Of a stretch of 64,000 bases of DNA, positions 39,569-56,907 are shown piece by piece (the first letter of the stretch is position 1; every line of letters begins with the position of its first letter). Made by a program: the position numbers and the translations under genes. This stretch comes from an uncultured Thermoplasmata archaeon. GTDB taxonomy: Archaea; Thermoplasmatota; Thermoplasmata; RBG-16-68-12. The stretch is taken from contig CAVYJM010000006.1 in assembly GCA_963768855.1 (NCBI GenBank), positions 832,001-896,000 on the forward strand, in the 5' to 3' direction. The notes beneath the pieces are model-generated. The model saw only the letters and a program-made list of their open reading frames with translations, was not told the DNA's origin and did not search any database.

Positions 39569-39588
39569 GGTTTCGGGTGGCCGAAACC
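39569..39588. promoter_or_regulatory. Inverted repeat GGTTTCGG-GTGG-CCGAAACC between divergent TATA-like boxes
   Basis: Perfect 8-bp arms; CTTAAG at 39543 and TTAAAAA at 39590 flank it. Confidence 0.55.
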
Positions 39589-39641
39589 CTTAAAAATCAC
39601 CGTTTCCGCTAAGCCATCACGGTTTTGGGGAGAAGGAGACC

Positions 39642-40574
39642 TTGGACCAGCTTGACTTCAGGATATTCAAATCCCTCGGCTACCAACCCTTCGGTCCAGA
39701 TGCCGGCGACCTATCGAGGCTGAACCCGTGGGTCATCGCCAAGAAGCTAGGAGCCGACGGAAACACGGTCAAGCTACGCCTGAACAAGATGAAGAAGAGC
39801 GGCTTCATCAAGTACTTCCAAATCTACCCTAACTACCGTGTGCTGGGGACCAACGGGGCTGCCTACCTCTTTCACGTGAGCGATGTCCTGGAGAAATACG
39901 ACACAATCGACAAGTGCGCGCTCGTCGACGGCGTCATGGAGATTCACAACTTCATCGGAACGGACATCTGCATCGACTTCACCTACGAGGACGGTAGGGA
40001 CGAGGAGCGAAGGCTGGAGCTGCTGCGCAGGCTGACCCGCTGCGATTCTCCGGAGAAGTTCTACGATCGCTTCATGCCACAAGTAGACGTGGAGCTGTCG
40101 AACGCGGACTGGCGGATCATCAAGGCCCTGAGGTACGATGCCTTCAAGCCATTGTCCAAGGTGGCCGAGGAGCTTGGGCTGACCGCACAGACCGTCCGCA
40201 AGCGATTCGAGAGGATGACTCAGCACAACGCGGTGTTCATCGTGCCCCTGGTGAACCCGGCCGAGATCGCTGACACAATCACCTACGTGATGTTGATGTA
40301 TCCATCGCCAGCCAAGCGCAAGGAGGCGATGGGTACGGCACTGAGGGAATTCGGGGACGCTTCCTTCCTGGTCAACGCGTCCTCGGAGGGGAACGCTATG
40401 CTGGCGCTCGCGGGGCGGACTCTTGCCGAGACGGAGGACAATCTGATCAAGGCAAGAAAGATCGAGGGCATGGACGACGTGAAGCTCCTCGTCCTCAGGG
40501 AGACGCGCGAGTACACGCAATGGATGGACTCCGCAATCGGCAAGAAAATCGCGGAGACTGCGAAAGCCCCGTAG
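39642..40574 (+). CDS. Lrp/AsnC-type regulator with tandem wHTH-RAM modules
   Basis: MDQLDFRIFKSL...IAKKLG..GNTVKLRLNKM and DWRIIKALRYDAFKPLSKVAEELGLTAQTVRKR. Confidence 0.82.
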   Translation: MDQLDFRIFKSLGYQPFGPDAGDLSRLNPWVIAKKLGADGNTVKLRLNKMKKSGFIKYFQIYPNYRVLGTNGAAYLFHVSDVLEKYDTIDKCALVDGVMEIHNFIGTDICIDFTYEDGRDEERRLELLRRLTRCDSPEKFYDRFMPQVDVELSNADWRIIKALRYDAFKPLSKVAEELGLTAQTVRKRFERMTQHNAVFIVPLVNPAEIADTITYVMLMYPSPAKRKEAMGTALREFGDASFLVNASSEGNAMLALAGRTLAETEDNLIKARKIEGMDDVKLLVLRETREYTQWMDSAIGKKIAETAKAP

Positions 40575-40967
40575 CAACCCGGCGTGGAAGGACGCCGAGA
40601 CAGCAGACACCGCGCAAAAACGCCCCTGAAGGTCGATGTTCGGTAGACCATGCCTTGCGTCGATTCCCCGGACCTCTCGATGGTTCGTGGCGCTCAGTCC
40701 GAGTTCTGCCGCACTGCTGCGGTTGACGTAGGTGGTCCCGGCCCCTGGGACTAAGGTGAACCGCAAGGCGCGAGGCCCATTCACGCGCACGGAGACGAAA
40801 ATGAGGTGGTCCTGCACATCCGGCGGGACTTCCGCCCGTTGCTTAGACTCGAACCGATCGCGCGTTGGCGTCGAGGACACGCCGCGGGGCTCCGGGGGCT
40901 CCAGGCATGCAGGCTCCAAGCCGCCTTGCCCGACCACGCCAAGGGCAGGCCCAGTCCTCGGCCGTGG

Positions 40968-41132
40968 CTAGCGTCCGAGCACGAGCGACCCGGAATGACA
41001 GCTGCAGTCGCAGGGCTGCATGACGCCGTTCTGCAGCACAAATCCGGAGCACTGGCGCGGGGATGTGGCCGTGTATCTCAACGAGGTCTCTTCGATGTCC
41101 TTGTGACCGCCCGCGCACCACGATGACATCAT
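40968..41132 (-). CDS. 54-aa Cys/His-rich micro-protein (below the ORF-track cutoff)
   Basis: MMSSWCAGGHKDIEETSLRYTATSPRQCSGFVLQNGVMQPCDCSCHSGSLVLGR. Confidence 0.6.
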   Translation of the reverse strand: MMSSWCAGGHKDIEETSLRYTATSPRQCSGFVLQNGVMQPCDCSCHSGSLVLGR

Positions 41133-41181
41133 AGAGGGCCACCCTTATAACTGGACTCGACCTTGAAAGCTCTCATCCTTG

Positions 41182-41337
41182 GGAACGGACGGGGCGGGAG
41201 CCGCCATCCCGATGCCGTGCCAGAATTCAAGATGGGATCCGAAACCCAGGTCACGCCGCAGAGTGGCTTCTCAAGCAAGTATATCAAGGATGGCGAGACC
41301 GTTAGCGGATGGCCAAGGGGAGAGCGCCCTCGGTCCC
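41182..41337 (+). repeat. att-like repeat copy C
   Basis: Gapless alignment to copy B; 77 of 102 identical over 41231-41332 vs 50102-50203; starts ACGGACGGGGCGGGA (12/15 to the tRNA end). Confidence 0.85.
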
Positions 41338-41613
41338 GGCCGGCGGCAGCTCTCGCAGTGGGGCGGGCATCTTACTCCTCTTCCTCCGGTCGCTGGGCCG
41401 CGCCTCGCTCCCGGCCTCACAGGTCAGCCCGGCCGTCGAACCCAGCAGACTGCCATCAACATGCCACTGCCACGGAAAAGTCCGGATGTGGCCTGGAAGG
41501 TGCTGCCCGTTCGCGGCAATCGTCACGCTGAACATGTCCCTCTCCTTAGGCCCCAGCGATTGCGTTGCGAGAGCCCTCGCGGTCTGTGCGCTCCTCGTTC
41601 TTGCGTGACGCAA

Positions 41614-42953
41614 CTACTGAGTCTCGTGTCGACGTCGGTGACGAGGATCCGCCAAGACCCATACCACAACCCCGACAAGAATGAACTCTCCGAGCACATA
41701 CAGCATCGCCATGCCGAACACGTCGGCAATGTTCCACGATCCCCACGCGCTCCCCACAACCCGAAGAGAATACTGCGTTGATGAAGAGCCAATGCCCACG
41801 ACTTGTCCGTAGGCAATGACGACGCCTCCCGCAGGCTGAAGCCCTATCGAGGTGCCCGCGTCGAGGGATGCTTGCGTTGCGACGGCGCGTCGCGACCATG
41901 ACCCCCCGGCGTTCGTCGCATACATGACGAGTCCGCTCTGGTAGTCGATGTAACTGAGATGGACGTTCCCGCTTGTATCAAGGACCAGGGAACAGGCAAT
42001 AGCCCCCCCACCTGGGCCACGAGCTCCTGTGTCCAGGTTCCGCTCACGTTCGTGGCATGAACGACGTAGGTTGTGTTAGTGGACTCATTGTAGGAGGTAT
42101 GGGCCGTGTGGACGCGACCGCGGGAATCGAGTGCTATCGGTGCAGGACTGTACATCCCGCCGGAGGAAGGGATGTAGGACAACCACGAAGCGGTCCAGGT
42201 TCCGCCCGAATTCGTAATGTAACGGATGAAATACAGGCCGAACGCCAGCGAGATGTGGACGCCACCTGAGGGCGACGCCGCAATCGCTAGATAACTGCCA
42301 CCCGTCAGATCCCCGTTCGTGGAGAACACGGTCGTATTCATCCAGGCTCCCTGCGCGTTGGTTGCATATCGAACGTCCGTGACGGACCCGTTCGTCCAGA
42401 GGTATGCCACGTGGACATGATCGGACCTGTCGACGGTTATCGCGGGATCGAGCGCGTGGTCATCGAGGGTTGTCGCAGACCAGGATCCTCCTGCGTTGGT
42501 CAGGTACCGGATCAATGCGAGCTCGCCGATATCCCTGCGGGGCGGAACCGCAGCTTCCACAACATGGAGATGGTCTTTCGAATCCTTTGCGAGACCCGCC
42601 TGCGTGACCCAGTTGACTTGATCGAGCGGAGTTAGGGTCCAAGTTCCGCGCGAGTTGGTTGCGTACAGGACCGAACCATTCGTGATCACCATGTGGAAAT
42701 TACCACTCGAGTCTACGACCAAGTCTGTCGCCCGGGTCCACTGGCTGAACACGGTACTGCCGGGCCAAGATCCCGCGATGCCGAAGACTCCCAGCGTGCC
42801 GGCGAAGACCAAAACCACCGCAATTGCGAATGCGCCAAACGGGTGACGCCGGATGAACCGCAGAGTCCGCGTGCCCGCGCCCGTGCGGGGTTCTTTCGCC
42901 GGAATGGGTCTTGCTGCCTCCGACGTTGAAACCCCTACAGTGGCGAGAGCCAC
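41614..42953 (-). CDS. Membrane-anchored beta-propeller-like repeat surface protein, frameshifted in a G7 run
   Basis: Repeats of (L/V)D..G..H.....Y(A/L)TN..G.W; frame changes at 42003-42009; N- and C-terminal TM helices; start uncertain. Confidence 0.75.
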
Positions 42954-43080
42954 CGGTCGTCTGCTTAACCTTTCGTATGTATCGCAGCGGGAGGGAGGAC
43001 CACGTTCACCCCAAACGGTGAATGACAAGTACGCCCCCTTCTGTTCGGCGTATGTTGTTCTACCTCGTTCCCCAACGCAT

Positions 43081-43106
43081 GAGACCCCCGCGGCCGCGGG
43101 GGTCTC
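43081..43106. repeat. Perfect 26-bp palindrome GAGACCCCCGCGGCCGCGGGGGTCTC
   Basis: Self-complementary over its full length; intergenic. Confidence 0.8.
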
Positions 43107-43226
43107 CCCTTACCACAGAGTCCTGCCGGTGTGATCGCGCCGCCGGCCGGCCGTGCGCCTCCCCGTTCTGACAGGCTGCCCGAATCACCTGATTCTGGCG
43201 CGTTCGCGCTCCATGATTTCGGGCTT

Positions 43227-43418
43227 CTACAGGCCGAAGAAGACGAAAACTGCAGCACAAAGACCGATGATGCTCCCGACGAGGATATCCATGGTTGTAG
43301 CAGCCGGGCTGGTCGGCCCAGATTTGGGGAGGACGACGTATCCGAGAATCATGCCTCCCCATATCCCAATAGCCATCGTGATGAGCAACAGCCTTTGTTC
43401 GTGCGGGGTGAGTATCAT
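43227..43418 (-). CDS. Small two-TM membrane protein
   Basis: LLLITMAIGIWGGMILGYVVL ... ILVGSIIGLCAAVFVFFGL. Confidence 0.7.
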   Translation of the reverse strand: MILTPHEQRLLLITMAIGIWGGMILGYVVLPKSGPTSPAATTMDILVGSIIGLCAAVFVFFGL

Positions 43419-43522
43419 GCCGAAACCCCGCATCCCCTCGTCCCGGCGTAGCCGTTCCGGCCGACTCGGGAACGACGGGGCGAGGCACCCCGCTCCGCTC
43501 TGGGGAGGCGTTTGCAGCCGTC

Positions 43523-43645
43523 TCACTTCACGCGCCGTTCAGTCGACCGAGCTCGATCCCGGCGTAGCCGTCCGCGCTTCCACTTTCGGCTCTTTTGTTG
43601 GCCACGCTCGGGGTTTCTGGAGCCTTTCCTTCCCTTTCCCGTCAT
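43523..43645 (-). CDS. Candidate 40-aa highly basic peptide
   Basis: MTGKGRKGSRNPERGQQKSRKWKRGRLRRDRARSTERRVK; TTAAG about 30 nt upstream. Confidence 0.35.
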   Translation of the reverse strand: MTGKGRKGSRNPERGQQKSRKWKRGRLRRDRARSTERRVK

Positions 43646-43730
43646 CGTTGGGTCAGCAGGTGACCTCGTCACTTAAGGGTATGGACGAGATCTTCGGGAC
43701 GAATCCAGTAATCGACGCGGCTTTCGCCGC

Positions 43731-44066
43731 TCACCAAAGGACCCCGCGCAGCCTCAGTCGCTCCACGAGATCCCGGAACCTCGCGCGATTGAACCGACGA
43801 TATCGCTCGCCCTCGTTGAACAGGACGGCCTTCACCTGCTCCGGGCTATGCGAGTCCAGGATCGTCCGCACCGATGTGTCGGCGTCCTGGCGACCTTGCA
43901 GGTACGCGACGACGGCCTCGTTCAAATGCCGATACGACCCCTCGAGCGGTGCTGGCTGTCGCGTCACAATCTCCCCGTTCCTGCCAGCGATTTGTGCCGA
44001 TAAGGCACCGTCCGGGAGGGGTGGGCGAAAGTGCACGAGCGCGAGCACCTTTCTCGCGATGGTCAT
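43731..44066 (-). CDS. Hypothetical protein, 111 aa
   Basis: Starts 3 nt after the upstream stop; natural composition. Confidence 0.65.
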   Translation of the reverse strand: MTIARKVLALVHFRPPLPDGALSAQIAGRNGEIVTRQPAPLEGSYRHLNEAVVAYLQGRQDADTSVRTILDSHSPEQVKAVLFNEGERYRRFNRARFRDLVERLRLRGVLW

Positions 44067-44069
44067 GTG

Positions 44070-44711
44070 CTACCGCGAGGCCATCACTTTCGTAATTGCC
44101 TCGACGACATCGGTCGGGCGGGCAACGGCTCCGCAGTATTGACACTTGGTGAGGGCCTCCGGAGACATCGTTCCCGTGATCGCGGAAGGACTACGACAGA
44201 CGGGGCATGTGTAGCTCGCCGATACGCCCATGGTCCTGAGCTGCTCCAGAAGGTCGTTTACGTTGACATGGACCTGCGTACTGACTTGGCGACGTCCCGC
44301 CCGTCGGACCTCGCCAGCTTCCTTGTGCATCCCCAGGCTCTCGTAGATCTTGGCTGCGTCCTCGTGTCGCTCCGCGCTGATGTAGTTGATCGCAGAGGCG
44401 AGAGCCCACTTGCGTTTGTGGTCCGAGATCATCCGGCCGACCCGGTCCAGGAAGGCCGGTCCGAGCGCCACTCCTTCGAACATCCACGTCGAACCCCATG
44501 CGACGACCTGTGCGCCGCTCGAGACGCGGTATGATGCCCAGGCGTCGAAACATCCCGTTGAACAGCTCGCCCAGGGCTCCCACTTGCCCGTAGGCTGCAT
44601 GGTGTGACCGACGACGAGGAGGCAGTTCTTGCAGGCTGTCCTACCGCAGGTCCTGCATTGCTGGGGGCCGAGGAGGAGACCCGAAGCACCGCAACTGGGA
44701 CATGTCCCCAA
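44070..44711 (-). CDS. Multi-zinc-ribbon protein with a TPR-like helical segment
   Basis: Six CxxC/CxxxC pairs (CPSC, CRTC, CKNC, CSTGC, CPVC, CQYC); EDAAKIYESLGMHKEAGEVRR. Confidence 0.75.
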   Translation of the reverse strand: MGTCPSCGASGLLLGPQQCRTCGRTACKNCLLVVGHTMQPTGKWEPWASCSTGCFDAWASYRVSSGAQVVAWGSTWMFEGVALGPAFLDRVGRMISDHKRKWALASAINYISAERHEDAAKIYESLGMHKEAGEVRRAGRRQVSTQVHVNVNDLLEQLRTMGVSASYTCPVCRSPSAITGTMSPEALTKCQYCGAVARPTDVVEAITKVMASR

Positions 44712-44946
44712 GCCCTTGTTCCCTCCAGAGAGTGAGACACCTGTGGGGATTCAATGGTTTCGGTTGAGTTCCCACCGAGGACGACCCAAAACCCCAAGCT
44801 TGCGACCAGGGGAACGGGCCGTCGCACCGCTCTCGCGCGGCGGGCGCATTGCGATGCCCACATCGGGCATGATCGACTCTCGCCGCGCGAGCGTCACAAT
44901 TCGGTGAACCGAAAGGATGAAAGCGCAAGGCGCAGTCCTAGCGGCG

Positions 44947-45921
44947 ATGCCTAGAGACAAAGTCCTCGATTGGCTCCTCGAACCGGACCAGCCGTCTGTT
45001 CGCTATCACACACTGATTGACCTACTGGGGCGCAAGCAAGACGACCCGGAAGTGAAAGCAGCGTACTCGACGATCCCTCGAGTTGGTTGGGCTCATGACC
45101 TTCTGAGAACCCAGAAGCCCAAGGGGTACTGGGAGGCCCATGAGCCGAGGACGGTCCGGGAGTGGGTCCGGTTCCTCCGCTTCCCCCTGTACGACTCGTC
45201 GATTTGGAAAGGGATCGTCCTCTCCGACCTCGGCCTCACGGCGACCGACCCGCGGATTCGAAGGCTCGCCGACCTCGTCTTCGAGTACAAGCTGCACCTC
45301 AGCTCAGAGGTGAACCTCTTCACGGAGGAGGTCTGCATCGTCGGGAACGTCGCGCGCATGCTGACACGGTTCGGGTACGGCGACGATCGCCGGGTCCGGA
45401 AGCTCTACGACTGGATGATCGAGGACCAGCGGGAGGACGGGGGCTGGAACTGCGCCGCCAGTAAGCCCGGGACCCTTGACTGCTGGGAGGCGTTGGCCGC
45501 GTTCGCGACGATTCCGAAGGCGAATCGGACCGCCGCGATGGAGCGGGCGATCTCGAGAGGGGCGGACTTCTATCTCGAGCGGAAGCTCTTCGAGGAGGGG
45601 CGACGGTACGCTCCTTGGTTCCGGTTCCATTACCCAACGCATTACTACTACGACGTCCTGGTAGGGCTCGACGTCCTCACGGGGCTCGGATACGCCAGGG
45701 ATCGTCGCCTCAAGCCCGCCCTCCAGATCCTTCGCGAGAAGCGACGGAGCGACGGGACCTGGGTCCTCGACCGGGTTCATCCCGACGAAGGGCCGGGAAG
45801 CGGTCACGGGGCCGCCGCGAGGAAAGTAAAACCGCTCGCGCTGGAGCGGGCGGGGGAACCGAGCAAGTGGATCACGCTCACGGCCCTTCGGGTCTTTAAG
45901 CGGGTGGAGGACGCGAGGTGA
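44947..45921 (+). CDS. Prenyltransferase/squalene-cyclase-repeat (alpha-alpha toroid) hypothetical protein
   Basis: DQREDGGWNC, KRRSDGTW QW-like motifs, F.YPTHYYYDVL..L. Confidence 0.7.
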   Translation: MPRDKVLDWLLEPDQPSVRYHTLIDLLGRKQDDPEVKAAYSTIPRVGWAHDLLRTQKPKGYWEAHEPRTVREWVRFLRFPLYDSSIWKGIVLSDLGLTATDPRIRRLADLVFEYKLHLSSEVNLFTEEVCIVGNVARMLTRFGYGDDRRVRKLYDWMIEDQREDGGWNCAASKPGTLDCWEALAAFATIPKANRTAAMERAISRGADFYLERKLFEEGRRYAPWFRFHYPTHYYYDVLVGLDVLTGLGYARDRRLKPALQILREKRRSDGTWVLDRVHPDEGPGSGHGAAARKVKPLALERAGEPSKWITLTALRVFKRVEDAR

Positions 45922-45942
45922 CGCGATGTCCCGCGGAAAGCT

Positions 45943-46647
45943 TCAGTCCGAGGAGAGGGCCATGAGATCCTTGGCCAGCTCGTCCGGCTTCGTGATCATC
46001 GGCCAGTGACCCGTGTCGATGACCTTGTGCGGACCTTCGAGCTTCCCCCACTTCCCCGCGATAATCTCGTCGACGGGATCCCCGCTGAGGCTGCAGAAGA
46101 TGTACGCCTCCTTCACGCCGTCGTAGTTCTTGGACAGCGTGATCGGGTCCGTTGCGAGTTTGAGCGGCCAAGGCGTCGCCAGGGACATCATCCGCTTCAG
46201 GTTCGTTCCCTGGACGTCGCTCCCGATGCGGGCCACAATCTCCTCGGTGAGGGGGATCCCGTAGGCGCCTGGAGGTGGCGGTCCGAACTCGCCGGAGGGG
46301 TCGAACCCGCCTTGTGGGGTCCTCACCCTCTCCGGGCGGAAGGCGTCCACGTAAATCACCTTGCGGACCTTGTCGTGCGCGCGATCCGCCATGGCCGCGG
46401 CCACCTTGCCCGCGAAGCTGTGTCCGACCAACACGAAGTCATCGAGCTCCTCGTAGTTGACCGCGTTCAGGACATCCTGGATCGCGATCTCAATGCCGAC
46501 GTCCCTCGAGGCCAGGTGCACCCGGTCGCCCATTCCGGTCAAGGTGATAGGATATACGGAGTGCCCCTTCTTCTCGAGGAAGGGTGTCACCTGCCGCCAC
46601 GCCCAAGCCCCCAACCATGCACCCGGAACCAAGACGAACCGCGCCAT
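45943..46647 (-). CDS. Alpha/beta hydrolase (methylesterase/salicylate esterase-like)
   Basis: FVLVPGAWLGAWAW, LVGHSFAG nucleophile elbow, DTGHWPM. Confidence 0.88.
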   Translation of the reverse strand: MARFVLVPGAWLGAWAWRQVTPFLEKKGHSVYPITLTGMGDRVHLASRDVGIEIAIQDVLNAVNYEELDDFVLVGHSFAGKVAAAMADRAHDKVRKVIYVDAFRPERVRTPQGGFDPSGEFGPPPPGAYGIPLTEEIVARIGSDVQGTNLKRMMSLATPWPLKLATDPITLSKNYDGVKEAYIFCSLSGDPVDEIIAGKWGKLEGPHKVIDTGHWPMITKPDELAKDLMALSSD

Positions 46648-46816
46648 ACGGGAGTGTCACCGCGGTTCTCTATTTAAGGCCGCCCTAGAGGAGGCAAAAC
46701 GCGGCCGAGGCTGATTCCCGACCTGGCCACCGAGTGCTGCGAGGGCCACGCCCGCGCGCGAAGAACGGGTGGATGTTAAGTACGGAATCCGTTTTCGCGG
46801 GCGTGAGGGCGTGACC

Positions 46817-47287
46817 ATGAAACCTTCGAAGAAGGACACGCAGAAGCCTGCCAAGAGTACCACCGGGACCGGCAACAAGTCCAAGGGATTCACGGAAGAG
46901 GAACGAGCCGCGATGCGGGAGCGCGCCCGAGAGCTGAAGGCGGGCGCGGGCGAGGTGGACGGGGAAAGCGCCGTGCTCGCGAAGATCGCCGCGATGCCGG
47001 CACCGGATCGCGCCCTGGGCGAGCGGCTCCATGCCATCGTCAGATCCAACGCACCCGTCCTCGTGCCGAGACTCTGGTACGGGATGCCCGCGTATGCCAA
47101 GGACGGCAAGGTCGTTTGCCACTACCAGAACGCGGCGAAGTTCAAGACGCGGTACGGGACGCTCGGCTTCAGCGACAAGGCGCACCTCGACGAGGGCCCC
47201 GTCTGGCCGGTGGCCTTCGCGTTGACGGAGTTGACGCCCGCCGACGAGGCGAGGATTGCCGCGCTCGTGAAGAAAGCGGTGAGCTGA
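46817..47287 (+). CDS. DUF1801 (YdhG-like) protein
   Basis: [39 protein letters not shown]. Confidence 0.82.
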
Positions 47288-47289
47288 GG

Positions 47290-47715
47290 ATGAAGGTAAG
47301 TACGAGTCGTCACCAGAGTGGCGAGTCTGCCTCCCACTTGACAGACGACAGAATCAGGGGGACGAGTGACTGGCGGGGCAAGACCCTATCGCATCTGCGA
47401 GATGTGATCCAGCGAGCAGACCCTGCCGTGGTCGAAGAAGTGAAGTGGAGGAAACCCAGCAACCCGGCGGGAGTCCCCGTCTGGTCCCACGACGGAATAA
47501 TCTGTATCGGAGACACGCTCAAGAAATCCGTGAGGCTGACGTTCCCAAAAGGCGCTCAGATTGAGGATCCAAAGACGCTTTTCAACGCGAGACTGGAAGG
47601 CAACACGGTTCGCGCCATCGACGTCCACGAAGGCGATACTATAGACGAGGCCGCGTTGGAGGCGCTCATTCTCGAAGCTGTTGGTCTGAACACATCGGAA
47701 GTTCGCGAGCGATAG
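47290..47715 (+). CDS. DUF1801 (YdhG-like) protein, second family member
   Basis: DWRGKTL, EEVKWRKP...GVPVWSHDGIIC, LTFPKGA...DP..LFN. Confidence 0.82.
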   Translation: MKVSTSRHQSGESASHLTDDRIRGTSDWRGKTLSHLRDVIQRADPAVVEEVKWRKPSNPAGVPVWSHDGIICIGDTLKKSVRLTFPKGAQIEDPKTLFNARLEGNTVRAIDVHEGDTIDEAALEALILEAVGLNTSEVRER

Positions 47716-47962
47716 GCTCACGTCGAGGCAGACTGTGCGGGAGCGCTCAGCTCTCTGGCCCGCCCGATGGTGCCTTTCACGGGTGTCCACATAAACTCCA
47801 TCTGCGAGTGGCGGGATCCCTCCCCGCGGCGCCACGGCTGAGCCGGCAATCCCTTCCTCCTTCGAAGATGAGAGCGCTCTGCGGCCCCAGGGCGTTTCTC
47901 CCGTAGATACGCGTTGACCTTTGAGCGCTGGATTCATCTGCACGCCCCGATCTTCCTCCAGT

Positions 47963-48025
47963 GGAACGGACCCGGTGGGAGCCGGTGCCCAAATGCCGTG
48001 TTGATCTCTCAAATGGGATTCGAAA
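47963..48025 (+). repeat. att-like repeat copy A
   Basis: ACGGACCCGGTGGGA at 47966-47980 is identical to 54913-54927 (tRNA 3' end); gapless to copies B and C through ATGGGATTCGAAA; weak similarity continues to about 48080. Confidence 0.85.
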
Positions 48026-48304
48026 GGCCTTCTCGGGAGAATGAGACTACTTGAGGACCTCCTTAAAGGAGGCGCGACGGACTGCCATTTTCGTATCACG
48101 CAGGGCATCACTCGCTTCCGTCACCTCACGGATCGGGCGCATTATCCAAACATCACAAATCGCACCGGTACGAACAGCCCGACGGCCCTCAGTTCCCGGT
48201 GAGAGAGCGCCCTTTTATATGCGAACAGTCTAGTCCCGTCTGGTGTCTGCGCGGGGGAGACCCCTGCCGGGAACCGCGCAGATCGTGCGCCGCGGTGATG
48301 TGTT

Positions 48305-49225
48305 TTGATTGAGACTGAATCCCTCACCAAGAAGTTCGACGGCCTGACTGCCGTGGACGGTTTGACCTTCCGGGTCCAAGATGGTGAGGTCTTCGGCCTC
48401 CTGGGGCCCAATGGAGCCGGCAAAACGACCACGGTCAGAATGCTCTGCTGCCTCATCTCGAAAACGAGCGGCGAGGCGAGGATTGGGGACTATGTCGTCG
48501 GGAGCGACGTCGACTCACCGAAGATCCGGAAGATGATCGGGCTCGTGCCCGACAACGTCGGCCTCTACGAGAACATGACAGCTTACGACAACCTGGATTT
48601 CTACGGCCAGCTGTACGACCTCGCGGAGGCGGATCGGAGAGCGAACATCCGGCGGTTCCTCACCATGCTCGGACTGTGGGAGAAGAGGGACGTCGCGGCT
48701 GGGACATTCTCAAAAGGGATGAAACAGAAGCTTGCAATCGCCCGTGCCTTAATCCATGAGCCCGAAGTGCTGTTCTTGGATGAGCCGACCGTCAACCTGG
48801 ACCCGGAGTCGGCGAAGACAGTCCGGGACTTCCTCCTGGAACTGAAGAAGCAGAAGAAGACCATCTTTCTGAACACGCACAACCTCGACGAGGCCCAGAG
48901 GGTCTGCGACCGGATCGCGATCCTGAACACGCGGCTCATGGCCCTGGGTTCTCCCGCGGAGCTCGAGCGGTCCGTGGGGGGCCGGAAGACGGTCGTCCAA
49001 CTGACACAGGTGACCGACGCGATTTTGGGCGCATTAAGGAAGCTATCGGTCGTGAATCTGGCCGTGGACGGCAGTCGTCTAGTCATCGACGTGGTGGATC
49101 CGGAGAAGGAGAACCCGGCAATCCTCCGCGCCATATTTGAGGCGGGGGGCGTCGTCCAGTCTGCATCTGTGTCGTCCTCAACCCTGGAGGACGCGTATCT
49201 GAAACTGGTGAGGGAGAAGACGTGA
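48305..49225 (+). CDS. ABC-2 type transporter ATP-binding protein
   Basis: GPNGAGKT, FSKGMKQK, FLDEPT, NTH; TTTTATAT promoter near 48213. Confidence 0.9.
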   Translation: MIETESLTKKFDGLTAVDGLTFRVQDGEVFGLLGPNGAGKTTTVRMLCCLISKTSGEARIGDYVVGSDVDSPKIRKMIGLVPDNVGLYENMTAYDNLDFYGQLYDLAEADRRANIRRFLTMLGLWEKRDVAAGTFSKGMKQKLAIARALIHEPEVLFLDEPTVNLDPESAKTVRDFLLELKKQKKTIFLNTHNLDEAQRVCDRIAILNTRLMALGSPAELERSVGGRKTVVQLTQVTDAILGALRKLSVVNLAVDGSRLVIDVVDPEKENPAILRAIFEAGGVVQSASVSSSTLEDAYLKLVREKT

Positions 49226-49959
49226 GCCTGAGGCATGCGTGGATCATCGCAAAGAAGGACCTTAAGTCAATCCTCCGGAGGAGGACGGTCCTCTACACGA
49301 CGGTGGCGTTTCCGCTCATCATCGCCGTCCTCCTTCCCCTGGTCATCGAGTTTAGCGGGAGGAGGTCAGGCGGCTTCCCCGCCGCAGCCTTGCCGGGGTA
49401 TTTGGACGCGTTCGCATTCTTATTTGTGATCATACCCGCGATTATCCCCACACCCATCGCGTCGTACAGCATCGTCGGCGAGAAGGTCGAGAAAAGCCTC
49501 GAACCACTTCTTGCGACCCCCGTAGCCGATGGAGATATCCTACTCGGGAAGAGCATCGCTGCGTTCCTCCCGGCGATGCTTGGCACGTTCGCAGGTGCGG
49601 CCGTCTTCATGACGCTCATGGACCTCGTTACCGCGGACAAGTTAGGCTACCTCTACTTCCCGAATTGGAGGATAGGCGTCATCCTGCTGATTCTTGCCCC
49701 GCTCGCTGCACTGCTCAGCATCGAGGTCAGCGTCCTCGCCTCGTCGAAGGTCAGCGACGTTCGGGCGGCCGCCCAGCTGGGCGGCCTAGCCTTCCTCCCT
49801 TTCATTGGTATCTACATCGCCGGCGAGATCGGTGCTATCACACTCGACACGAACGGTCTCCTGACCATTGCTGCCGTGATGGCGCCCCTGGGCTTAGTGC
49901 TCTTCTTCGTCAGCAAGGCCACGTTCCAGCGTGAGCAGATCCTCACGAGGTGGAAATGA
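49222..49959 (+). CDS. ABC-2 type permease
   Basis: GEKVEKSLEPLLATPV...ILLGK, six TM helices. Confidence 0.88.
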   Translation: MSLRHAWIIAKKDLKSILRRRTVLYTTVAFPLIIAVLLPLVIEFSGRRSGGFPAAALPGYLDAFAFLFVIIPAIIPTPIASYSIVGEKVEKSLEPLLATPVADGDILLGKSIAAFLPAMLGTFAGAAVFMTLMDLVTADKLGYLYFPNWRIGVILLILAPLAALLSIEVSVLASSKVSDVRAAAQLGGLAFLPFIGIYIAGEIGAITLDTNGLLTIAAVMAPLGLVLFFVSKATFQREQILTRWK

Positions 49960-50054
49960 GAAGGGTCGGCGTGGGCCACGACCGGTGGATCAGAAATCCG
50001 CAGTGCCGTCTTTGAACTCCGTCTCCCCTGGCCGGGCCACGACGAGTTTCAATT

Positions 50055-50207
50055 CTCGGGACCGGTGGGAGCTGATACCAGGAACCAGTGCCTGAACTCA
50101 GGATGGGATTCTAAATCCATGTCACACCGCAACGTAGGTTCTTAGGGCGGTACATCAAGGCTCGAGAGACCCTTAGCGGATAGCCAACTGGGCACCGCCC
50201 TCGTCCC
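50055..50207 (+). repeat. att-like repeat copy B
   Basis: Starts CGGGACCGGTGGGA (12/14 to the tRNA end); gapless homology to copy C over about 147 nt. Confidence 0.85.
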
Positions 50208-50284
50208 CTGCTCACCGCCGCTTCGGAAGGCGTTGAAAGATTCAATATTCGAGGTCGGATGGGTGCCGCCCTGGTGGCAGCTCT

Positions 50285-50818
50285 TTGCACGCCCAAGTAA
50301 ACTTGCACAGTCCCGATGTCGGCAGGATGTTCGACTATTTCACGGACAGCCTCGGCTTTGCGCCGGAATTCCGGGTGCGCGGACCCGATGGCAGAGTGGT
50401 GTTCGCGGGCGCGTGGTGGGGCGCGGTGGGAAAAGGCACGCGGGTCGTCCTCGGGGACATCGAGGAAGCCCTGCACGACCATTACGACCATGGGGCGTTT
50501 GGCCAGCAGATGGAGGAGCATCCGCTCGGGACGGGCGTCGTCGTGTACTTCTACACCCAAGATGTCGACAGATTGTACGCGCGCATCACGAAGCACGGAG
50601 CCACCATCGACGAACCGCCCACAGACCAGTTCTGGGGCGAGCGGACCATCAGCGTGGTGACTCCTGACAGGTACTATCTGACCTTCGCTCAGCCCATCAA
50701 GGGCTTCCGCTTCTCACCCGCGTTCGCGGAGCGCATGGAATCCTTCCCCAAACCGGCGTCGCTAGCGCCGCGCGCGGGATCGAAGCGACGGCGACGGGAC
50801 GCGAGTCGATCCAGATAG
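50285..50818 (+). CDS. VOC/glyoxalase-bleomycin resistance family protein
   Basis: DYFTDSLGF, YFYTQDVD..YAR, PPTDQFWGER...V.TPD.Y.LTF. Confidence 0.85.
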   Translation: MHAQVNLHSPDVGRMFDYFTDSLGFAPEFRVRGPDGRVVFAGAWWGAVGKGTRVVLGDIEEALHDHYDHGAFGQQMEEHPLGTGVVVYFYTQDVDRLYARITKHGATIDEPPTDQFWGERTISVVTPDRYYLTFAQPIKGFRFSPAFAERMESFPKPASLAPRAGSKRRRRDASRSR

Positions 50819-50868
50819 CCCCTTTGCCGAGGGCGAAGACGCAATCACCCCCTCCGGCGCGGTGTCTC

Positions 50869-51123
50869 TCACCCAGTCGGTTTTCTCCCAAGGAACCCCA
50901 CGATTAGCCCAATAACGATTAGAGCGACACCGACGACGAGGAACAGATCCTGAAGGAAGACTGCGGTCGCGGCTGGTATCTCGGCGCCTCCGATTTCAAT
51001 TATGGCCGCCTGGGAGTCTGCGGAGCGGAGCGCATTCAACGAGAGCGTGAAGTCAATCGCCACGGTGAAGAAGGCCACACCAGCCAGCACGATCGGTGCA
51101 CCGAGCAAACGGGTCGTCCTCAC
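50869..51123 (-). CDS. Small two-TM membrane protein
   Basis: Two hydrophobic helices, 84 aa. Confidence 0.7.
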   Translation of the reverse strand: MRTTRLLGAPIVLAGVAFFTVAIDFTLSLNALRSADSQAAIIEIGGAEIPAATAVFLQDLFLVVGVALIVIGLIVGFLGRKPTG

Positions 51124-51403
51124 GGCAAGGAATTCAAGACGGTTGCCTTACTTAACGATGGCGAGGGGACTCCCGTAGCCAGGGCGGTTCGACCGTACCC
51201 CCTCGCACTCCTGGATCGGTTCTCGCACGCGGCAAGGAGTGGTGAAAGGATATACGCGACGCCCGCGTCACCATCAACACAAGCATCCCTTCACAACAGC
51301 CGCTCGGGCTTGTCAGCGGCGACTGCCTCTGCCGGTGGCCTCCACTATTTCTCACTGGTAACTAGGCCAGCAAGATTGTTCCAAATGGCGTGGACGAGTT
51401 CTC

Positions 51404-52393
51404 TTAGGCTCGGGCTTTCCGCACTTCCATGAGCTTCAGCAACTTCGTCCCATGATTGAGCAGTTCGGTGTAGGTGAGGATTTCCACGCGCGTCAGATGA
51501 CTCATCAGAAGTCTCCTTTCACGAGGATTGTCGGTCCGCTTGTTGCCGATGACGATAATAGCCTTCGGCTTGAACAGCCGCAATGAAGGACGCCGGTCGC
51601 ACTCGCTGAGGTATGTGAGAACTTGTCCCAGAGCCGTAGAGAGGGCGACGTTGAGTTTCGAGCGTCTTCTTGTTCTTCGGTCGAAAAGCGATTCGTCGGG
51701 ACCCTTGAGTTCGACAAGGTCCATGTAGCCATCCAGCCGTCGCAGCATGAAGTCAAACTCGAATTCCTTCGTATTGGGCGGGAATGCAACCTTACTCTCT
51801 AGGTCAACATACTCCAGTCCAAACAGCCAGAACGGCTTCTTCTCCTCGATGAAATGGTGGACAGTTGTCTCGTTGGCATCAGGGTCGTCTATCGCGGCTT
51901 GGAACTCGCGGAGTATCTTACGGTACGTCCCTACGTGGCGCTTCATGTCTCGGAGCCGTTGCTCCGCCCGGCGTCTCGCGGCCTTGTGATGCTTCTCGGC
52001 AGCGCGCGCTTCAAGCGCCTCGCCTTCAAGCCGCTCAATCTCCACATCGGGAACTCCTTCGTCGCCGAGGGTTGCTTCCAGCCGTACAAAGTCCGGGTCG
52101 GACAGCGAACTCTCCTCTTGGAAGTGCGCGTCTACGAGCGCGGATGCGCTCGCCCACTGCTCCGCTGACCGGATGTTGTAATTGCGGAATCTTTGCCAAT
52201 ATTTCGCGTTCGCCGCTTCCCTATCGACGCGCGCCCGCCACCGCACGAGTTGGACAAGCCGCTTCCCCGTCTCGTTCTCGGTAGCCACATCGACGGTGTA
52301 GAGCCACGCGCGGTTGGATGTGAGACCGGCCAGCGACCGGCTTACTACCTCATAACGTGGGCTCTCACGGAACTCGCGCTCGGCGTATCGCAT
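51404..52393 (-). CDS. Shedu-like (DUF4263) PD-(D/E)xK anti-phage nuclease with N-terminal accessory domain
   Basis: E..VH.FI....WLFG, FDF...DG..DLVELKGP, GQVLTY (QxxxY), KAIIVIG, VEILTY.EL. Confidence 0.82.
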   Translation of the reverse strand: MRYAEREFRESPRYEVVSRSLAGLTSNRAWLYTVDVATENETGKRLVQLVRWRARVDREAANAKYWQRFRNYNIRSAEQWASASALVDAHFQEESSLSDPDFVRLEATLGDEGVPDVEIERLEGEALEARAAEKHHKAARRRAEQRLRDMKRHVGTYRKILREFQAAIDDPDANETTVHHFIEEKKPFWLFGLEYVDLESKVAFPPNTKEFEFDFMLRRLDGYMDLVELKGPDESLFDRRTRRRSKLNVALSTALGQVLTYLSECDRRPSLRLFKPKAIIVIGNKRTDNPRERRLLMSHLTRVEILTYTELLNHGTKLLKLMEVRKARA

Positions 52394-52399
52394 CCCAGA

Positions 52400-52579
52400 C
52401 TAACCCCCGCCATGCCCGGATAGCAGCGAGGCAAAGGAGATTATCTCGTCGAGCACTCCAGCCGCCCCAAAGAATAGGCTGACCAATGGGTCTGCGACTG
52501 TCACAACAAGCGCGACGTAGATGGATACAGCACCCAACGGGATGCTCACTATCTCGAATGACAAGCCGTCCCTACTCAC
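52400..52579 (-). CDS. 59-aa membrane micro-protein directly upstream of the Shedu-like gene
   Basis: GTG start; MSRDGLSFEIVSIPLGAVSIYVALVVTVADPLVSLFFGAAGVLDEIISFASLLSGHGGG; TTAAG about 25-29 nt upstream; 6 nt from the next start. Confidence 0.6.
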   Translation of the reverse strand: MSRDGLSFEIVSIPLGAVSIYVALVVTVADPLVSLFFGAAGVLDEIISFASLLSGHGGG

Positions 52580-52746
52580 GAGGAAGACGTTAGCCCTAGA
52601 CTACTTAAGACTTGCAGGGGGGTCCGCAATGCCCAGATGAAACGGAAAAATGGGCCGAGGCGGTGCCGCCCGCCTCAGGAATGGCCCTAGAATCGATTTC
52701 CAATATAGATTTCGCACGTTGACCGCTTGGGCGTGGATGTGGGCGG

Positions 52747-53535
52747 TCAGTCCTTCGCTTCCCCGACCGGTCTTCGTACCCTCCGCACTCGTGTTCTCCG
52801 TGTCGACCTTGACTGGCTCTCAACAAAGGAGAGGATGGCACCCGTCGCTATCGCGCCAACGCCTAGATAGACCCCAACGAAGGTGAGTGCGTACAGGGGA
52901 TACGCGGTTACCTGCACGCACAGCCCGTCAGCGCAGGTTGCCGGAGACGGAATCGGGATAAGGCCGGTCAGGGCAACTGCCCAGAGCACACCCCCCGCCA
53001 GTGTGACCTTCTTGGACAGAGAGTGGCCCAAATCAAGAGGCGGGCGCGGCTTTGCGTTCTGAAGCGGCTCCGGCCGCCCGAGAATCGGCCGGAGGATTCG
53101 ATAGAGATTCGTTGCATTCATGCCGACCAGACTTCCGACGACCCACGAGACTGGTACACCCTGAATGGTGATTGCGCCCGTTCCACCCGCGAACTCAAGG
53201 CTGGGAGGCGTCGTCATGAAGACGATGACCCAGTAGACCGCCACCCCAAAAGAGACCACAGACACGACATCGAACGAGGTTTGCAACGTTGGTCGCCGAC
53301 CCATCAGAACGAGCAGGGAGACGAAGAGCAACGCGGATACCAAGATGACATCGACTATGGGGGTAAGGTCGCTCCCCTGCGCCCAAAGTACTACCCCGAG
53401 GAGGATGCTGACCGTGGTGACCTTGACGGTCCATCCGCCCCACGGCATGACCCGGAATAGCGCACGGAACTCGAGCACGAGAATCGGTGCGAATGCCACG
53501 AGAAAGAGCCCCGCCGTCTGGAGTTGCGAGTCCAT
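52747..53535 (-). CDS. Polytopic membrane protein, unknown function
   Basis: About seven hydrophobic segments. Confidence 0.7.
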   Translation of the reverse strand: MDSQLQTAGLFLVAFAPILVLEFRALFRVMPWGGWTVKVTTVSILLGVVLWAQGSDLTPIVDVILVSALLFVSLLVLMGRRPTLQTSFDVVSVVSFGVAVYWVIVFMTTPPSLEFAGGTGAITIQGVPVSWVVGSLVGMNATNLYRILRPILGRPEPLQNAKPRPPLDLGHSLSKKVTLAGGVLWAVALTGLIPIPSPATCADGLCVQVTAYPLYALTFVGVYLGVGAIATGAILSFVESQSRSTRRTRVRRVRRPVGEAKD

Positions 53536-53668
53536 TCACTTCGCCTCAGAAGTAGAAGGGGTACCACCTCCATTAGCGAGACGGGGGAGATAGGCGAAAG
53601 TGGCATTCCTCACGTCTCCCTGCTCCATCGCCGAAGAAAGGCCGGAAGGGCTATCCTCCAGGTGACGG

Positions 53669-54109
53669 ATGCGGCTGAGAGACCGCTCGATGACAGGAAG
53701 CTCCCAGCCCCGCCGAGAAAGTCAACTGCGGAGGATTCTGGGAAGCCGATGGCTGATAGTCGCGGTCATCGTGATTGTAGTCATCGCAATTGTCATCGCA
53801 GGAGAAGTGCGGCCTGGACCCGTCTTCTCCCTTAGCGGTCTCGGTTACAAGCGGAACTGCTTCTACAACACGACCCAGGGCAACTACTCCTTCTGGAGTG
53901 TGTACTTCAACATTACGAATCGCGGTGCCAGTGCGTCCGCAGCGGTCGCCATCTCGGTGGACGAGACAGTGGTTTCCTACCAGCAGGTCTACGTCGCGTC
54001 GAGTGCGACGGCGCTTGTTCATGAAAACGTTACAGATTCGGCCATCTCCACCGACCCAGGTTGCCAGCAGAACAACGTCACGGTCGGTATTTGGGGATGG
54101 GTCTTCTAG
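53669..54109 (+). CDS. Membrane-anchored extracellular protein, unknown function
   Basis: One TM helix, NxS/T sequons, one Cys pair. Confidence 0.7.
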   Translation: MRLRDRSMTGSSQPRRESQLRRILGSRWLIVAVIVIVVIAIVIAGEVRPGPVFSLSGLGYKRNCFYNTTQGNYSFWSVYFNITNRGASASAAVAISVDETVVSYQQVYVASSATALVHENVTDSAISTDPGCQQNNVTVGIWGWVF

Positions 54110-54153
54110 CTAGTCTGCCTGAGCCCTTCGCCCCCGACTCGGCCGGAAGGGCT

Positions 54154-54705
54154 ATGCCGGGACTGGTCGATGTAGGTGTTGGGAGTGGAGAGATGCAACC
54201 GAATGTGTCGCCGTCACCGACGCCTGTGCCGACGCCTGAAACTAGAAGCCGTGGTTGGGGCTATTGGGTCGTCATCTTAGGCGGACTCGCCGTGGCCCTC
54301 GGGACGGTTGTTACGCAGCAGACCTCTTTTGACATCCTAAACTTGTCCGGCGCCCCGCCCAGCCTTCCGTTGGGGACCTATCAAGAATGGGCGATTCTCT
54401 CAGGCACCGGAACCTTGCTGTCTGCGGTAGGCTTTCTGTTGGTCTTCGTCGGGGCCTCCGTGGCGTTCCGGGGTTCACGGTCGGTTCCGGTTGGACCGAC
54501 CCGCCGGACGTTCGTGACCCTCCTTCTCGGCGGTTCGCTCGTAGCTGTTGGGCTCGTGGCATTGAGCGTGCTCGGGTTCTACTCCTACACGCCGTTCCCT
54601 CCCGGTCTCACCGTGTACTATTCCATCGACCTAGGTGGACGGATTGTCGAAGCCGTCGGGTTCTTCGTCGCGTTTGTCGGGGTCGCCGGCGCTCTTCGCC
54701 GTTGA
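54154..54705 (+). CDS. Four-TM membrane protein, unknown function
   Basis: Internal two-fold repeat of TM hairpins (..LSAVGFLLVFVG / ..VEAVGFFVAFVG). Confidence 0.7.
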   Translation: MPGLVDVGVGSGEMQPNVSPSPTPVPTPETRSRGWGYWVVILGGLAVALGTVVTQQTSFDILNLSGAPPSLPLGTYQEWAILSGTGTLLSAVGFLLVFVGASVAFRGSRSVPVGPTRRTFVTLLLGGSLVAVGLVALSVLGFYSYTPFPPGLTVYYSIDLGGRIVEAVGFFVAFVGVAGALRR

Positions 54706-54913
54706 CCTCGGAAAGGGAGAGTGCCCCCGCCTCGTCGCCCCCGAGCGGCCGGAAAACGGAAAGGGAGGGCGGTACGACCGCCCTCGTGGGTGGGGACGAG
54801 GCAGCGTCGAAGAAAGTAGAGCGTTGTCAACAAACCGCTATCCGGCCCATCGTTCCGCTAAAGCGACAACATTCAATCCGAGTTGATTTAGGCTTTCCTA
54901 CTCCATAGGGGTA

Positions 54914-54988
54914 CGGACCCGGTGGGATTCGAACCCACGAGAGCCGGATTAGAAATCCGGAGCCCTATCCGTGCTAGGCGACGGGTCC
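54914..54988 (-). tRNA. tRNA-Arg (anticodon TCT)
   Basis: GGACCCG/CGGGTCC-G acceptor, CCGGA-TTTCTAA-TCCGG anticodon arm, GTGGG-TTCGAAT-CCCAC T-arm; CTTAT about 25 nt upstream. Confidence 0.95.
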
Positions 54989-55295
54989 GTAACGCGGGAC
55001 GGTCGGGGTCTCATAAGTATCCATCGTCGTCGTGCGTCACCGGTGTCCCGGAGGCCATGCGCCTCCCCACCTGGGAAGTCTCCACGATACGACCCGTTTC
55101 TTTAAGATGTGCTCGAAGCCTGCCGTTGGCTGAGGGGCGAGCCCTGAGGCCGAGGCGATGAAGGCCCAGCCAAGGAACATCGCGAACGCCCGGCGCGAAC
55201 CGCGCCTCGGGCGCCGGGTGCGAAAGCCCGCTCGCCCCACACCCAGCCAGGTCCCGGACCAGATTCGCATCACTTCCGTCGCCGGCGGGGCGGTG

Positions 55296-56907
55296 ATGGG
55301 GCGGGGCTCCCAGCTCCGTCCGCCCAGGAGACTCTCCTCGCCGCGATCGCGGAGGCCGTCGAGAAGGAAGCGCTCACCGAGGAACGGATGGCGGAGTCTC
55401 GCCCGCGCGCACCGCGCGCCTCTTGTCCACCGTACTGAGCCTCTACACGTTTACTTCCCCCCGGACAGCTGGAAGACGGTGAAGCGTCTGCAACGGCCTT
55501 CCGTGCGCCCTTCGGGCCGACGGGGCTATCCATGGGCAATTCGGCGCCACCGAGTCCGACGTGGGCACCGCGTCCTGCCTCGGGTACTGCGCGAGCGCGC
55601 CGGTGGCCTGGAAGGAGGGCCGTTACTACACCACCGCGTCCGGTCGTCCCAAGGAGATTCAGGAGAGCACTGCGGCGTGGGTCGATGCACACACGCAGGG
55701 ATTGCGGGCCTATCGAACCACCGGCGGGTACACGGCCTTCAAACGGGTGCTCGACGCGAAGGACCGGGACTCCCTCCTGGGCGTGATTGAGACTGCCGTC
55801 CTACGGGGGATGGGCGGTGCCGGGTTCCCCGTGTACCTCAAGTGGAAGGCGGTGATGGGCAGCACCCGGACGGATCGCGTCGTTGTCGTGAACGCGCACG
55901 AGGGGGAGCCCGGGACGTTCAAGGACCGGCTCATCCTGGAGAGGGAACCTCACCGGCTCGTCGAGGGGGTCCTCATCGCCGCGTCCGTCGTCGGAGCGGC
56001 GGTCGTGGTCATCGCTCTCAAGGCGGAATACGCGAACGCCCGCCGCGTGCTGGAGCGCAGCCTCCGCGAGCTCGCGCAGGCCGCCGGAGACATGGGCTTC
56101 GAAGGGCGGCTCCCTAACCTGGAGCTCCGCTCGCTCGTCGGATCCTACGTCACAGGCGAGGAGACCGCGCTTCTTGAGGCCCTCGAAGGGCGGCGGAGCG
56201 AGCCCCGCTCGCGCCCTCCATTCCCCGCCGAGGCCGGCCTGTACGGGAGGCCGACGCTTGTGCAGAACGTGGAGACGCTTGCCGCGATCCCTCCCTTGCT
56301 CCTGCCTTCGTCCGACGAGGCGGATCGGCAAAAGATCGCGAAGTTCTTCTGCCTGACCGGCGACGTGCGCACGCCCGGAGCCTACCGTGAACCCCTTGGC
56401 ATCCGGGCGGACTCACTGGTCGAGAAGGATGGAGGGTCTTCCGCCGGGGAACTGAAGGCCTTCTTCCCCGGCGGGCTGTCCGGCGGCCTCCTCCCCACGT
56501 CCAAGCTGGACGTGGAGCTGAACTTCGAGGCGGTCCGGAAGCACGGCTGCGGTCTGGGCACCGGCGCGGTCGTGGCGATCAGGGACGGACCGGTGCATCG
56601 TGGACGTCCTCTCGACCGCTCGGCGAGTTCTTCCGGTCGGAGTCGTGCGGGAAGTGCGTCCCCTGCCGGCTCGGGACCACCCAGCTCTCCGCGCTCTATG
56701 GGTCGCCTGCGCGACGGGACGGCGACGGAGGCGGACCTGCAGGAAGGCGGAGCCGTCGCGAGGCTCATGCAGGAGACCTCCCTCTGCGCCCTCGGCCAGG
56801 TGGCGGGCAAGCCCTTCCTCGATGCGATGAGCGGCCTGCGGGACGAGATGCTCGCCCACGCCCGCGGTGAGTGTCCCGCGCACGTTGGTCGTCACGGCGG
56901 TGGTTGA
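55296..56907 (+). CDS. NuoE-NuoF (FdsG-FdsB-like) fused diaphorase subunit, several frameshifts
   Basis: CNGLPC...CLGYC 2Fe-2S motif in frame with LRGMGGAGFP, NAHEGEPGTFKDR, YVTGEETAL; ESCGKCVPCR lies in another frame near 56640. Confidence 0.8.

Follow-up and report, generated by a model that had tools for sequence, protein, structure and literature searches.

Putative tRNA-derived attachment-site repeats mark an integrase-free array of cassette-like modules at a tRNA-Arg gene of a soil Thermoplasmata archaeon

We analysed a stretch of 64,000 nucleotides (nt; the window, positions 832001-896000 of contig C6) from an uncultured soil Thermoplasmata archaeon, represented by a metagenome-assembled genome (MAG; G000) of 2.87 Mb and 66% GC. 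The window holds an intact tRNA-Arg(TCT) gene and, downstream of it, three homologous, co-oriented repeats of a short element that divide a genomic island into gene modules. The repeats are non-coding and are probably tRNA-derived copies of an attachment site, which record the insertion, replacement or loss of cassettes through site-specific recombination at the tRNA end. The tRNA gene and the element copies are arranged as follows.

54913-54989, minus strand: intact tRNA-Arg(TCT), the anchor of the array (ARAGORN; Rfam tRNA model, 58.5 bits)
50045-50215, plus strand: element copy 3 (at 50056), with a degenerate acceptor part, an intact GGTGGGA core and a long arm
49960-50005, plus strand: possible decayed tRNA-Arg 3' fragment that adjoins copy 3 on its left and reaches from the acceptor to the anticodon arm without the T-loop, assigned tentatively from an alignment
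47959-48095, plus strand: element copy 2 (at 47966), whose left part is a perfect displaced tRNA 3' end with about 18 nt of trailer and whose right part is an arm of a shortened variant
41178-41345, plus strand: element copy 1 (at 41185), with a degenerate acceptor-like part, the core, a T-arm-derived hairpin, a second hairpin, a T-loop-like box and a long conserved arm

The last 15 nt of the tRNA gene (54913-54927, read on the plus strand) are the shared core stretch; they comprise one trailer base, the discriminator, the 3' strand of the acceptor stem, the 3' strand of the T-stem and one T-loop base. This 15-mer, ACGGACCCGGTGGGA, has exactly two matches in the window, at 47966 and 54913, and none in 100 shuffles, in agreement with the initial annotation of the 47966 stretch as an exact copy of the tRNA-Arg 3' end. 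That annotation also placed diverged versions with a common downstream arm at 41185 and 50057 (here 50056), and the arms bear it out. Searched as 15-mers alone with three mismatches allowed, these two sites are not significant (11 matches found, 6 expected); their homology rests instead on the alignment of 41185-41331 with 50056-50202, which is gapless and identical at 104 of 147 positions. The distal 102 nt had been given as 77/102 identical with mismatches of 7/10/8 over the codon positions; the corrected figures are 76/102 and 8/10/8. A repeat alignment in the window spans 159 nt at 71% identity. The copy at 47966 is well matched over its first ~75 nt and continues in a shortened, more diverged arm to ~48095, and copy 1 together with its left flank is 74% identical to a copy in the related genome G009. 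The alignment score of the putative tRNA fragment at 49960-50005 only ties for the second-best non-self match in the window.

A blastn search of the 2.87-Mb genome found no further copies apart from that on contig C1, a strain variant that covers the first copy. This contig (8129 nt) is a 96%-identical second copy of C6:866847-874987 (window 34847-42987) with the same arrangement across the element; its separate assembly at 96% identity points to strain heterogeneity within the MAG.

Alignment of about 17 copies defines an element family of about 90-165 nt whose core, GGTGGGA, is common to the tRNA T-stem and whose conserved arm is in turn a diverged form of a tRNA 3' portion. Read on the plus strand, a variable, acceptor-like stretch comes first, followed by the almost invariant GGTGGGAGCCG, a hairpin of 4 bp with an 8-nt loop, a longer second hairpin and a T-loop-like box; most copies then continue for ~90 nt of further conserved sequence with AT-rich boxes, and a second type of arm is present in two copies. 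Judged by homology, the first hairpin is a diverged T arm, since a half-element in G005 is homologous to a displaced tRNA fragment in G042: they sit at equivalent positions between homologous flanks, and two loop bases distinguish them. The G042 fragment, which is 24 nt long and has a counterpart in G049, lies 650-750 nt downstream of the tRNA-Arg gene. In both genomes (contig C15 of G042 and contig C256 of G049, loci L040/L041) the resident tRNA-Arg carries the T-stem variant GGAGGG/CCCTCC, and the displaced fragment carries GGTGGG, as in element-bearing genomes. The T variant is found in all four element-adjacent tRNA-Arg genes (G000, G005, G009, G013), and also in G041 and G008, where no elements were detected.

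As the initial annotation had proposed, we scanned related genomes with a model of the element, here a sequence-only model of its first 90 nt. Clear matches occur in 4 of 37 other genomes of the genus (G005, G009, G013, G049) and weak partial matches in two more; the other 31 genomes of the genus and 41 genomes from the other genera of the order gave nothing. A motif scan of metagenomes added three contigs with real copies, a second motif scan of genome contigs returned only chance bacterial matches, and the element is absent from the viral contigs, phages and plasmids searched. Full or near-full copies in independent assemblies and metagenomes score 20-77 bits. The window and six contigs hold at least two copies each, 17 in total including partial and low-scoring ones, all co-oriented within their sequence. 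Wherever one contig carries both the tRNA and the element (the window, G005, contig C218 of G009 and contig C46 of G013), the element is found downstream of tRNA-Arg(TCT), always oriented the same way relative to it. Two spacings between cores are geneless, or 'empty': at 10034-10130 of locus L028 (contig C56 of G005) an element copy is followed directly by another core (95 nt), and at 1988-2062 of locus L062 (G009 C218) the unit is 48 nt.

The repeat was proposed to be non-coding, and this stands, because substitutions are spread evenly over the codon positions (383/367/338) and 4 of 8 aligned copies contain an internal stop. One frame is open in some copies, and the open reading frame (ORF) at 41179-41781 has no Pfam match; we rejected a protein-coding repeat or an int(N) remnant on the absence of codon periodicity and the stops in other copies. 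Neither ARAGORN nor the Rfam tRNA model detected a hidden tRNA, an intron-bearing tRNA or a transfer-messenger RNA in the repeats.

The island that contains these repeats extends beyond them. GC content is 0.57-0.64 from ~39 to 55 kb vs. 0.65-0.71 outside, and synteny with G009 and G013 stops at the stop codon of a thioesterase gene (37845-38285); its left edge is therefore probably near 38.3 kb, not at 41.2 kb. No boundary repeat turned up in the window around 38.3 kb; in G009, a possible decayed copy that scores below the model threshold lies ~70 nt after the conserved thioesterase gene. The initial annotation divided the region into three modules of unrelated cargo. Pfam searches uphold the cargo calls; the three-module picture gives way to a longer island, in which the 6.8-kb module is itself composite. 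From left to right the content is as follows.

38290-41177, mixed strands: probable oldest module (Pfam; GC drop)
38460-38996, minus strand: TusA-domain protein (Pfam)
39139-39516, minus strand: DsrE-like protein (Pfam)
39642-40574, plus strand: AsnC-type helix-turn-helix protein (Pfam)
40968-41132, minus strand: 54-residue cysteine-rich ORF, no Pfam match
41346-47958, mixed strands: composite module 1 (Pfam)
41844-43028, minus strand: BNR-like protein
43153-44142, plus strand: unknown protein
44917-45921, plus strand: prenyltransferase/terpene-cyclase-like protein
45943-46647, minus strand: alpha/beta hydrolase
within 46769-47715, plus strand: two DUF1801 genes
48096-50044, plus strand: module 2 (Pfam)
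48305-49225, plus strand: ABC ATPase (Pfam)
49222-49959, plus strand: ABC-2 permease (Pfam)
50216-54912, mixed strands: module 3, adjacent to the tRNA (Pfam, translations)
50285-50818, plus strand: VOC/glyoxalase protein
51404-52393, minus strand: Shedu nuclease (SduA_C)
52747-53535, minus strand: membrane protein
53669-54109, plus strand: membrane protein
54061-54705, plus strand: membrane protein

Defence functions seen among the cargo are Shedu, Fic and a nucleotidyltransferase, and detoxification, transport and surface proteins occur as well. The cysteine-rich ORF at 40968-41132 (six cysteines and one histidine) starts 46 nt beyond the first element copy and could encode a small zinc-binding protein; the protein is 81-85% identical in G009 and G049, and in G009 its open frame continues through the element. 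The DUF1801 (YdhG-like) proteins of 46769-47715 are 73-80% identical to thousands of database proteins, including some named from Chloroflexi and Dormibacteraeota bacteria; identity to the bacterial ones (73-76%) suggests transfer of this cargo across domains. The 5' side of the tRNA is also variable: an operon at 55100-60270 (NuoF-like and formate-dehydrogenase genes) occurs in G000 and has a counterpart of only ~71% identity in G009, and in G005, G013 and G031 the saccharopine-dehydrogenase genes (window 60.3-63.8 kb) directly take its place. We found no repeat bounding this operon.

Three independent comparisons with relatives each yielded a breakpoint, all at GGTGGGA. First, contig C218 of G009 matches window 48057-50083 at 93.4% identity over 2027 nt; identity falls inside copy 3 just past the core, and after 31 unmatched bases the contig continues into the tRNA and its upstream region. 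Thus the ABC module of G009 directly adjoins the tRNA, and the 4.8-kb VOC/Shedu/membrane-protein module is absent between the same two cores. Second, the tRNA 3' end and trailer of G013 are 94% identical to window 47948-47980, and past the core G013 continues as tRNA and the window as arm, which identifies the left side of the 47966 copy as a displaced tRNA end. Third, the type-2 arm and DUF1801 gene on contig C121 of G009 recur on metagenome contig L067 (arm 83%, gene 93% identical); homology sets in immediately to the right of GGTGGGA, and what lies to the left is unrelated. Together, these breakpoints place the crossover at the core and indicate that the arm moves with the tRNA-proximal cassette.

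The content of the arrays differs as well among G005, G013, G049 and L116, the last being a locus of another MAG. L067 carries three element copies 1.1-1.3 kb apart with one gene per spacing (a membrane protein, an alpha/beta hydrolase and a sulfide-quinone-reductase-like flavoprotein). In G049, the hydrolase, terpene-cyclase-like and DUF1801 genes of module 1 appear in another order with element copies between them; at L116, the block corresponding to 44960-47715 is preceded by a short element copy and directly follows core genes; in a further MAG, known from gene calls only, the same block is followed after ~270 nt by saccharopine-dehydrogenase genes, which lie upstream of the tRNA in G013 and G005. 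These arrangements show that the 6.8-kb module 1 is composite. The ABC cassette is 93.4% identical between G000 and G009, vs. 87.5% and 71% for flanking core DNA. In many MAGs the contig breaks just downstream of tRNA-Arg, as expected of a strain-variable region. The modules are thus not inherited together as one fixed block: both the set of modules and their order vary among relatives, with breakpoints at the core, and the sequence comparisons support the view that the modules behave as independent units.

The initial annotation recognised no recombinase or int(N)/int(C) fragment in the island, and dedicated searches agree. The Pfam Phage_integrase family (PF00589) has six or seven members in the genome and none in the island; it is likewise absent from the element-bearing contigs of G005, G009, G013 and G049 and from the tRNA-Arg contigs of five other relatives. 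A tblastn search of all arrays, with 16 integrases of the genus as queries, returned only noise and no remnant, and more than 15 cassettes on about 12 contigs yielded not one fragment of an integrase. The ORFs adjoining tRNA-Arg encode membrane proteins, and no integrase, whole or split, borders any unit. The tyrosine recombinases that the annotation suggested looking for elsewhere in the genome do exist; integrases lie directly beside tRNA-Asn (at C6:1041571), tRNA-Ser(CGA) (at C12:105892) and tRNA-Asp (at C18:112748). The tRNA-Asn(GTT) island (C6:1041397-1070700) has an adjacent integrase of 416 residues and two displaced 3' fragments ~28-29 kb away, one of which starts at the 3' strand of the T-stem, as at tRNA-Arg. 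At a tRNA-Val(GAC) island (C11:236481-257520), the displaced fragment measures 24 nt and lies at a distance of 21 kb, and the surroundings gave no integrase match.

Our proposed mechanism is as follows. The site would consist of an acceptor-like stretch, the GGTGGGA core common to the T-stem/acceptor end of tRNA-Arg(TCT) and an element-specific arm of 75-150 nt; crossover would take place at the core, so that the tRNA-proximal cassette takes the arm with it, and the sequence left of the core would belong to the older, distal cassette or, at 47966, to the displaced tRNA end itself. Cassettes would in this way be inserted, replaced or lost at the 3' end of the tRNA gene. With no recombinase gene in the cassettes, either they would be moved in trans by a tyrosine integrase that targets tRNAs and is encoded at another place in the genome or on a visiting element, or the array is now an inactive relic; we infer the enzyme class, the circular intermediates and any present-day activity. 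A more specific form of the proposal, in which integrase-less cassettes of one to several genes with a ~165-nt tRNA-derived site make up a dedicated archaeal system whose recombinase, supplied from elsewhere, inserts, swaps and excises them at the tRNA-Arg(TCT) core, and thus a functional analogue of the integron on a tRNA gene, is a conjecture that we put forward only tentatively.

Several observations weigh against the proposed mechanism. No recombinase is linked to the sites. An all-against-all comparison of the 16 integrases (MAGs 82-98% complete) revealed no subfamily common to all element-bearing genomes; most contigs of the relatives are short, and an integrase could lie just past a contig end. 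We saw neither a circular junction nor a truly empty site; in G009, 48 nt remain between the two cores as a stub. The acceptor part is more degenerate in the tRNA-nearest copy (50056) than in that at 47966. The degenerate copy and the stub imply that simple serial insertion is insufficient and that replacement at internal cores must be assumed. Finally, gene orientation relative to the site is mixed.

The strongest alternative is ordinary accretion and decay, in which each module would be the stump of a separate integrative element (a provirus, a plasmid or a cryptic element) that entered tRNA-Arg with its own integrase and later lost this and its other mobility genes, leaving immobile, att-flanked remnants comparable to cis-mobilizable elements (CIMEs). 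Such events classically leave directly oriented, displaced tRNA 3' ends as their scar; classical tRNA-integrase islands exist in this genome; the displaced tRNA-Arg fragments of G042 and G049 belong to the usual T-loop type; CIMEs are an established concept (PMC5704250); and the tRNA islands of Prochlorococcus are full of degenerate integrase-less fragments (10.1101/2020.12.28.424599). However, decay would have to account for the lack of any integrase fragment in the more than 15 cassettes, and for one-gene cassettes of 1.1-1.3 kb that would each time have required precise loss of int with the ~165-nt arm kept. It would also have to account for the same integrase-less unit in two arrays with different neighbours, and for an ABC cassette more similar between species than the core flanks. 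On these grounds the evidence leans to cassettes that never had an integrase over stumps of classical elements, and we consider decay a less likely but live account.

Under a second alternative, the repeat would act as a promoter, leader or small RNA module and would have been copied along with adjacent genes, and genomes would differ through homologous recombination between the repeats. In its favour, the arm carries conserved AT-rich boxes such as TTCTTAAGG in a genome of 66% GC (TTCTTA(A/T)(A/G)G at window 41266-41280 and 50139-50147 and at 8050-8062 of L116), and at L116 the box precedes the start of the terpene-cyclase-like gene by ~40 nt. This spacing would suit an archaeal TATA box, so that the arm may double as a promoter; a consistent orientation of genes beside the element, which this idea would suggest, was rejected on a mixed tally. 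The element also has two to three short hairpins with some compensatory change: 78% of cells are paired vs. 27-45% when partners are slid, and G-T pairs exceed A-C pairs on the plus strand. Because the independent events behind these covariation counts are few, and the structure used was itself built from the sequences scored, we regard the hairpins as no more than possible. Against an RNA module, alifold on four and eight copies gave short hairpins and no convincing global consensus fold, single-stranded DNA folding energies were no better than those of shuffled sequence (z -2.1 to +1.6) with no long hairpin, and a known RNA family was rejected because Rfam, at the gathering threshold and at E<=5, matches tRNA only. 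All three mapped breakpoints fall at the same core instead of being spread along 165 nt, and this core is the tRNA end itself. Fixed breakpoints, a core equal to the tRNA end, common orientation and restriction to one locus argue for site-specific recombination and against homologous recombination between regulatory repeats, and we regard the promoter or RNA account as quite improbable.

Chance resemblance or an assembly artefact, for which one could cite the MAG contamination estimate of 7.7% and the chance-level number of three-mismatch 15-mer matches, is hardly credible, given an exact 15-mer unexpected by chance and a 159-nt, 71% repeat that recurs in independent assemblies of other species and in metagenomes.

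Set against known systems, the array combines site-specific accretion at a tRNA with cassettes organised much as in an integron and with a distinctive cassette site of tRNA origin. The CIMEs of Firmicutes related to ICESt1 (PMC5704250) resemble it in that att-flanked units free of integrase and transfer genes accumulate in tandem at the 3' terminus of their target gene and rely on the integrase of another element, as we propose here; the units of the array likewise have att sites on both sides and no integration or transfer genes. Genomes, viral contigs, phages and plasmids yielded no relative of the element that carries an integrase. CIMEs, however, are regarded as decayed integrative and conjugative or integrative and mobilizable elements and are few per locus, whereas the array consists of many small units, down to one gene, each with a dedicated ~165-nt arm, without a mobility-gene remnant and in an archaeal host.

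Integrons and clusters of attC sites lacking integron integrases (CALINs), including archaeal integrons (10.1101/2022.02.06.479319), share with the array promoter-poor accessory cassettes that each bear one recombination site, a crossover at a short core shared with a fixed chromosomal site, and content and order that vary between relatives. Unlike integrons, the array has no IntI and no attI beside intI; its fixed site is a tRNA 3' end, its cassette site is derived from a tRNA and not an attC hairpin with R and L boxes, its genes are in mixed orientation, and some units hold several genes. Neither PF00589 nor tblastn with 16 integrases found an integron integrase beside the array, and attC sites with paired R''/L'' and L'/R' boxes were not found, Rfam matching only tRNA at E<=5. 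The three breakpoints at GGTGGGA show exchange at a short core shared by cassette and fixed site, which is a likeness of working and not integron membership. Of the earlier proposal that an integron-like platform arose by repeated integration of small circles at one tRNA through a recombinase acting in trans, the att-like junctions and independent modules are upheld, and the circles and the trans-acting enzyme are putative; for want of IntI, attI and an attC hairpin, the array is not an integron.

The tycheposon-built tRNA islands of Prochlorococcus (10.1101/2020.12.28.424599) are likewise hypervariable, with repeated integration pushing older material inwards, scattered partial tRNAs and defence or niche cargo. 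A tycheposon encodes an integrase of its own and, in many cases, genes for replication, and pieces of integrase genes are among the remnants it leaves; the array shows no such gene or fragment. As defined in Islander (PMC4383910), tRNA islands share with the array an intact tRNA regenerated by the insert and a displaced 3' fragment at the far end; the Asn and Val islands of G000 use the same tRNA sublocation, T-stem/acceptor, as the array. The array has an intact tRNA with a co-oriented displaced 3' fragment, and it occurs sporadically among relatives (module 3 is absent in G009, where the 48-nt stub is not a clean empty site), and no island-encoded integrase was found. She et al. are reported to have described in 2001 an archaeal 'gene capture' by Sulfolobus spindle-shaped virus (SSV)-type integrases that split into int(N) and int(C). 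In the array no int(N) or int(C) half borders an insert, and the open frame lacks codon periodicity. A limited literature search found no description of integrase-free cassette arrays on archaeal tRNA genes.

In conclusion, the element family is small and well delimited by a defined core, arm and anchor, so that its recombination can be tested directly with a few candidate integrases. If the cassettes move without an integrase of their own, soil Thermoplasmata would have a cheap, site-specific means of collecting and exchanging single accessory genes. Such a system would also explain why MAG assemblies break just downstream of tRNA-Arg, and would represent an integron-like route of gene flow in archaea that is built from different parts.

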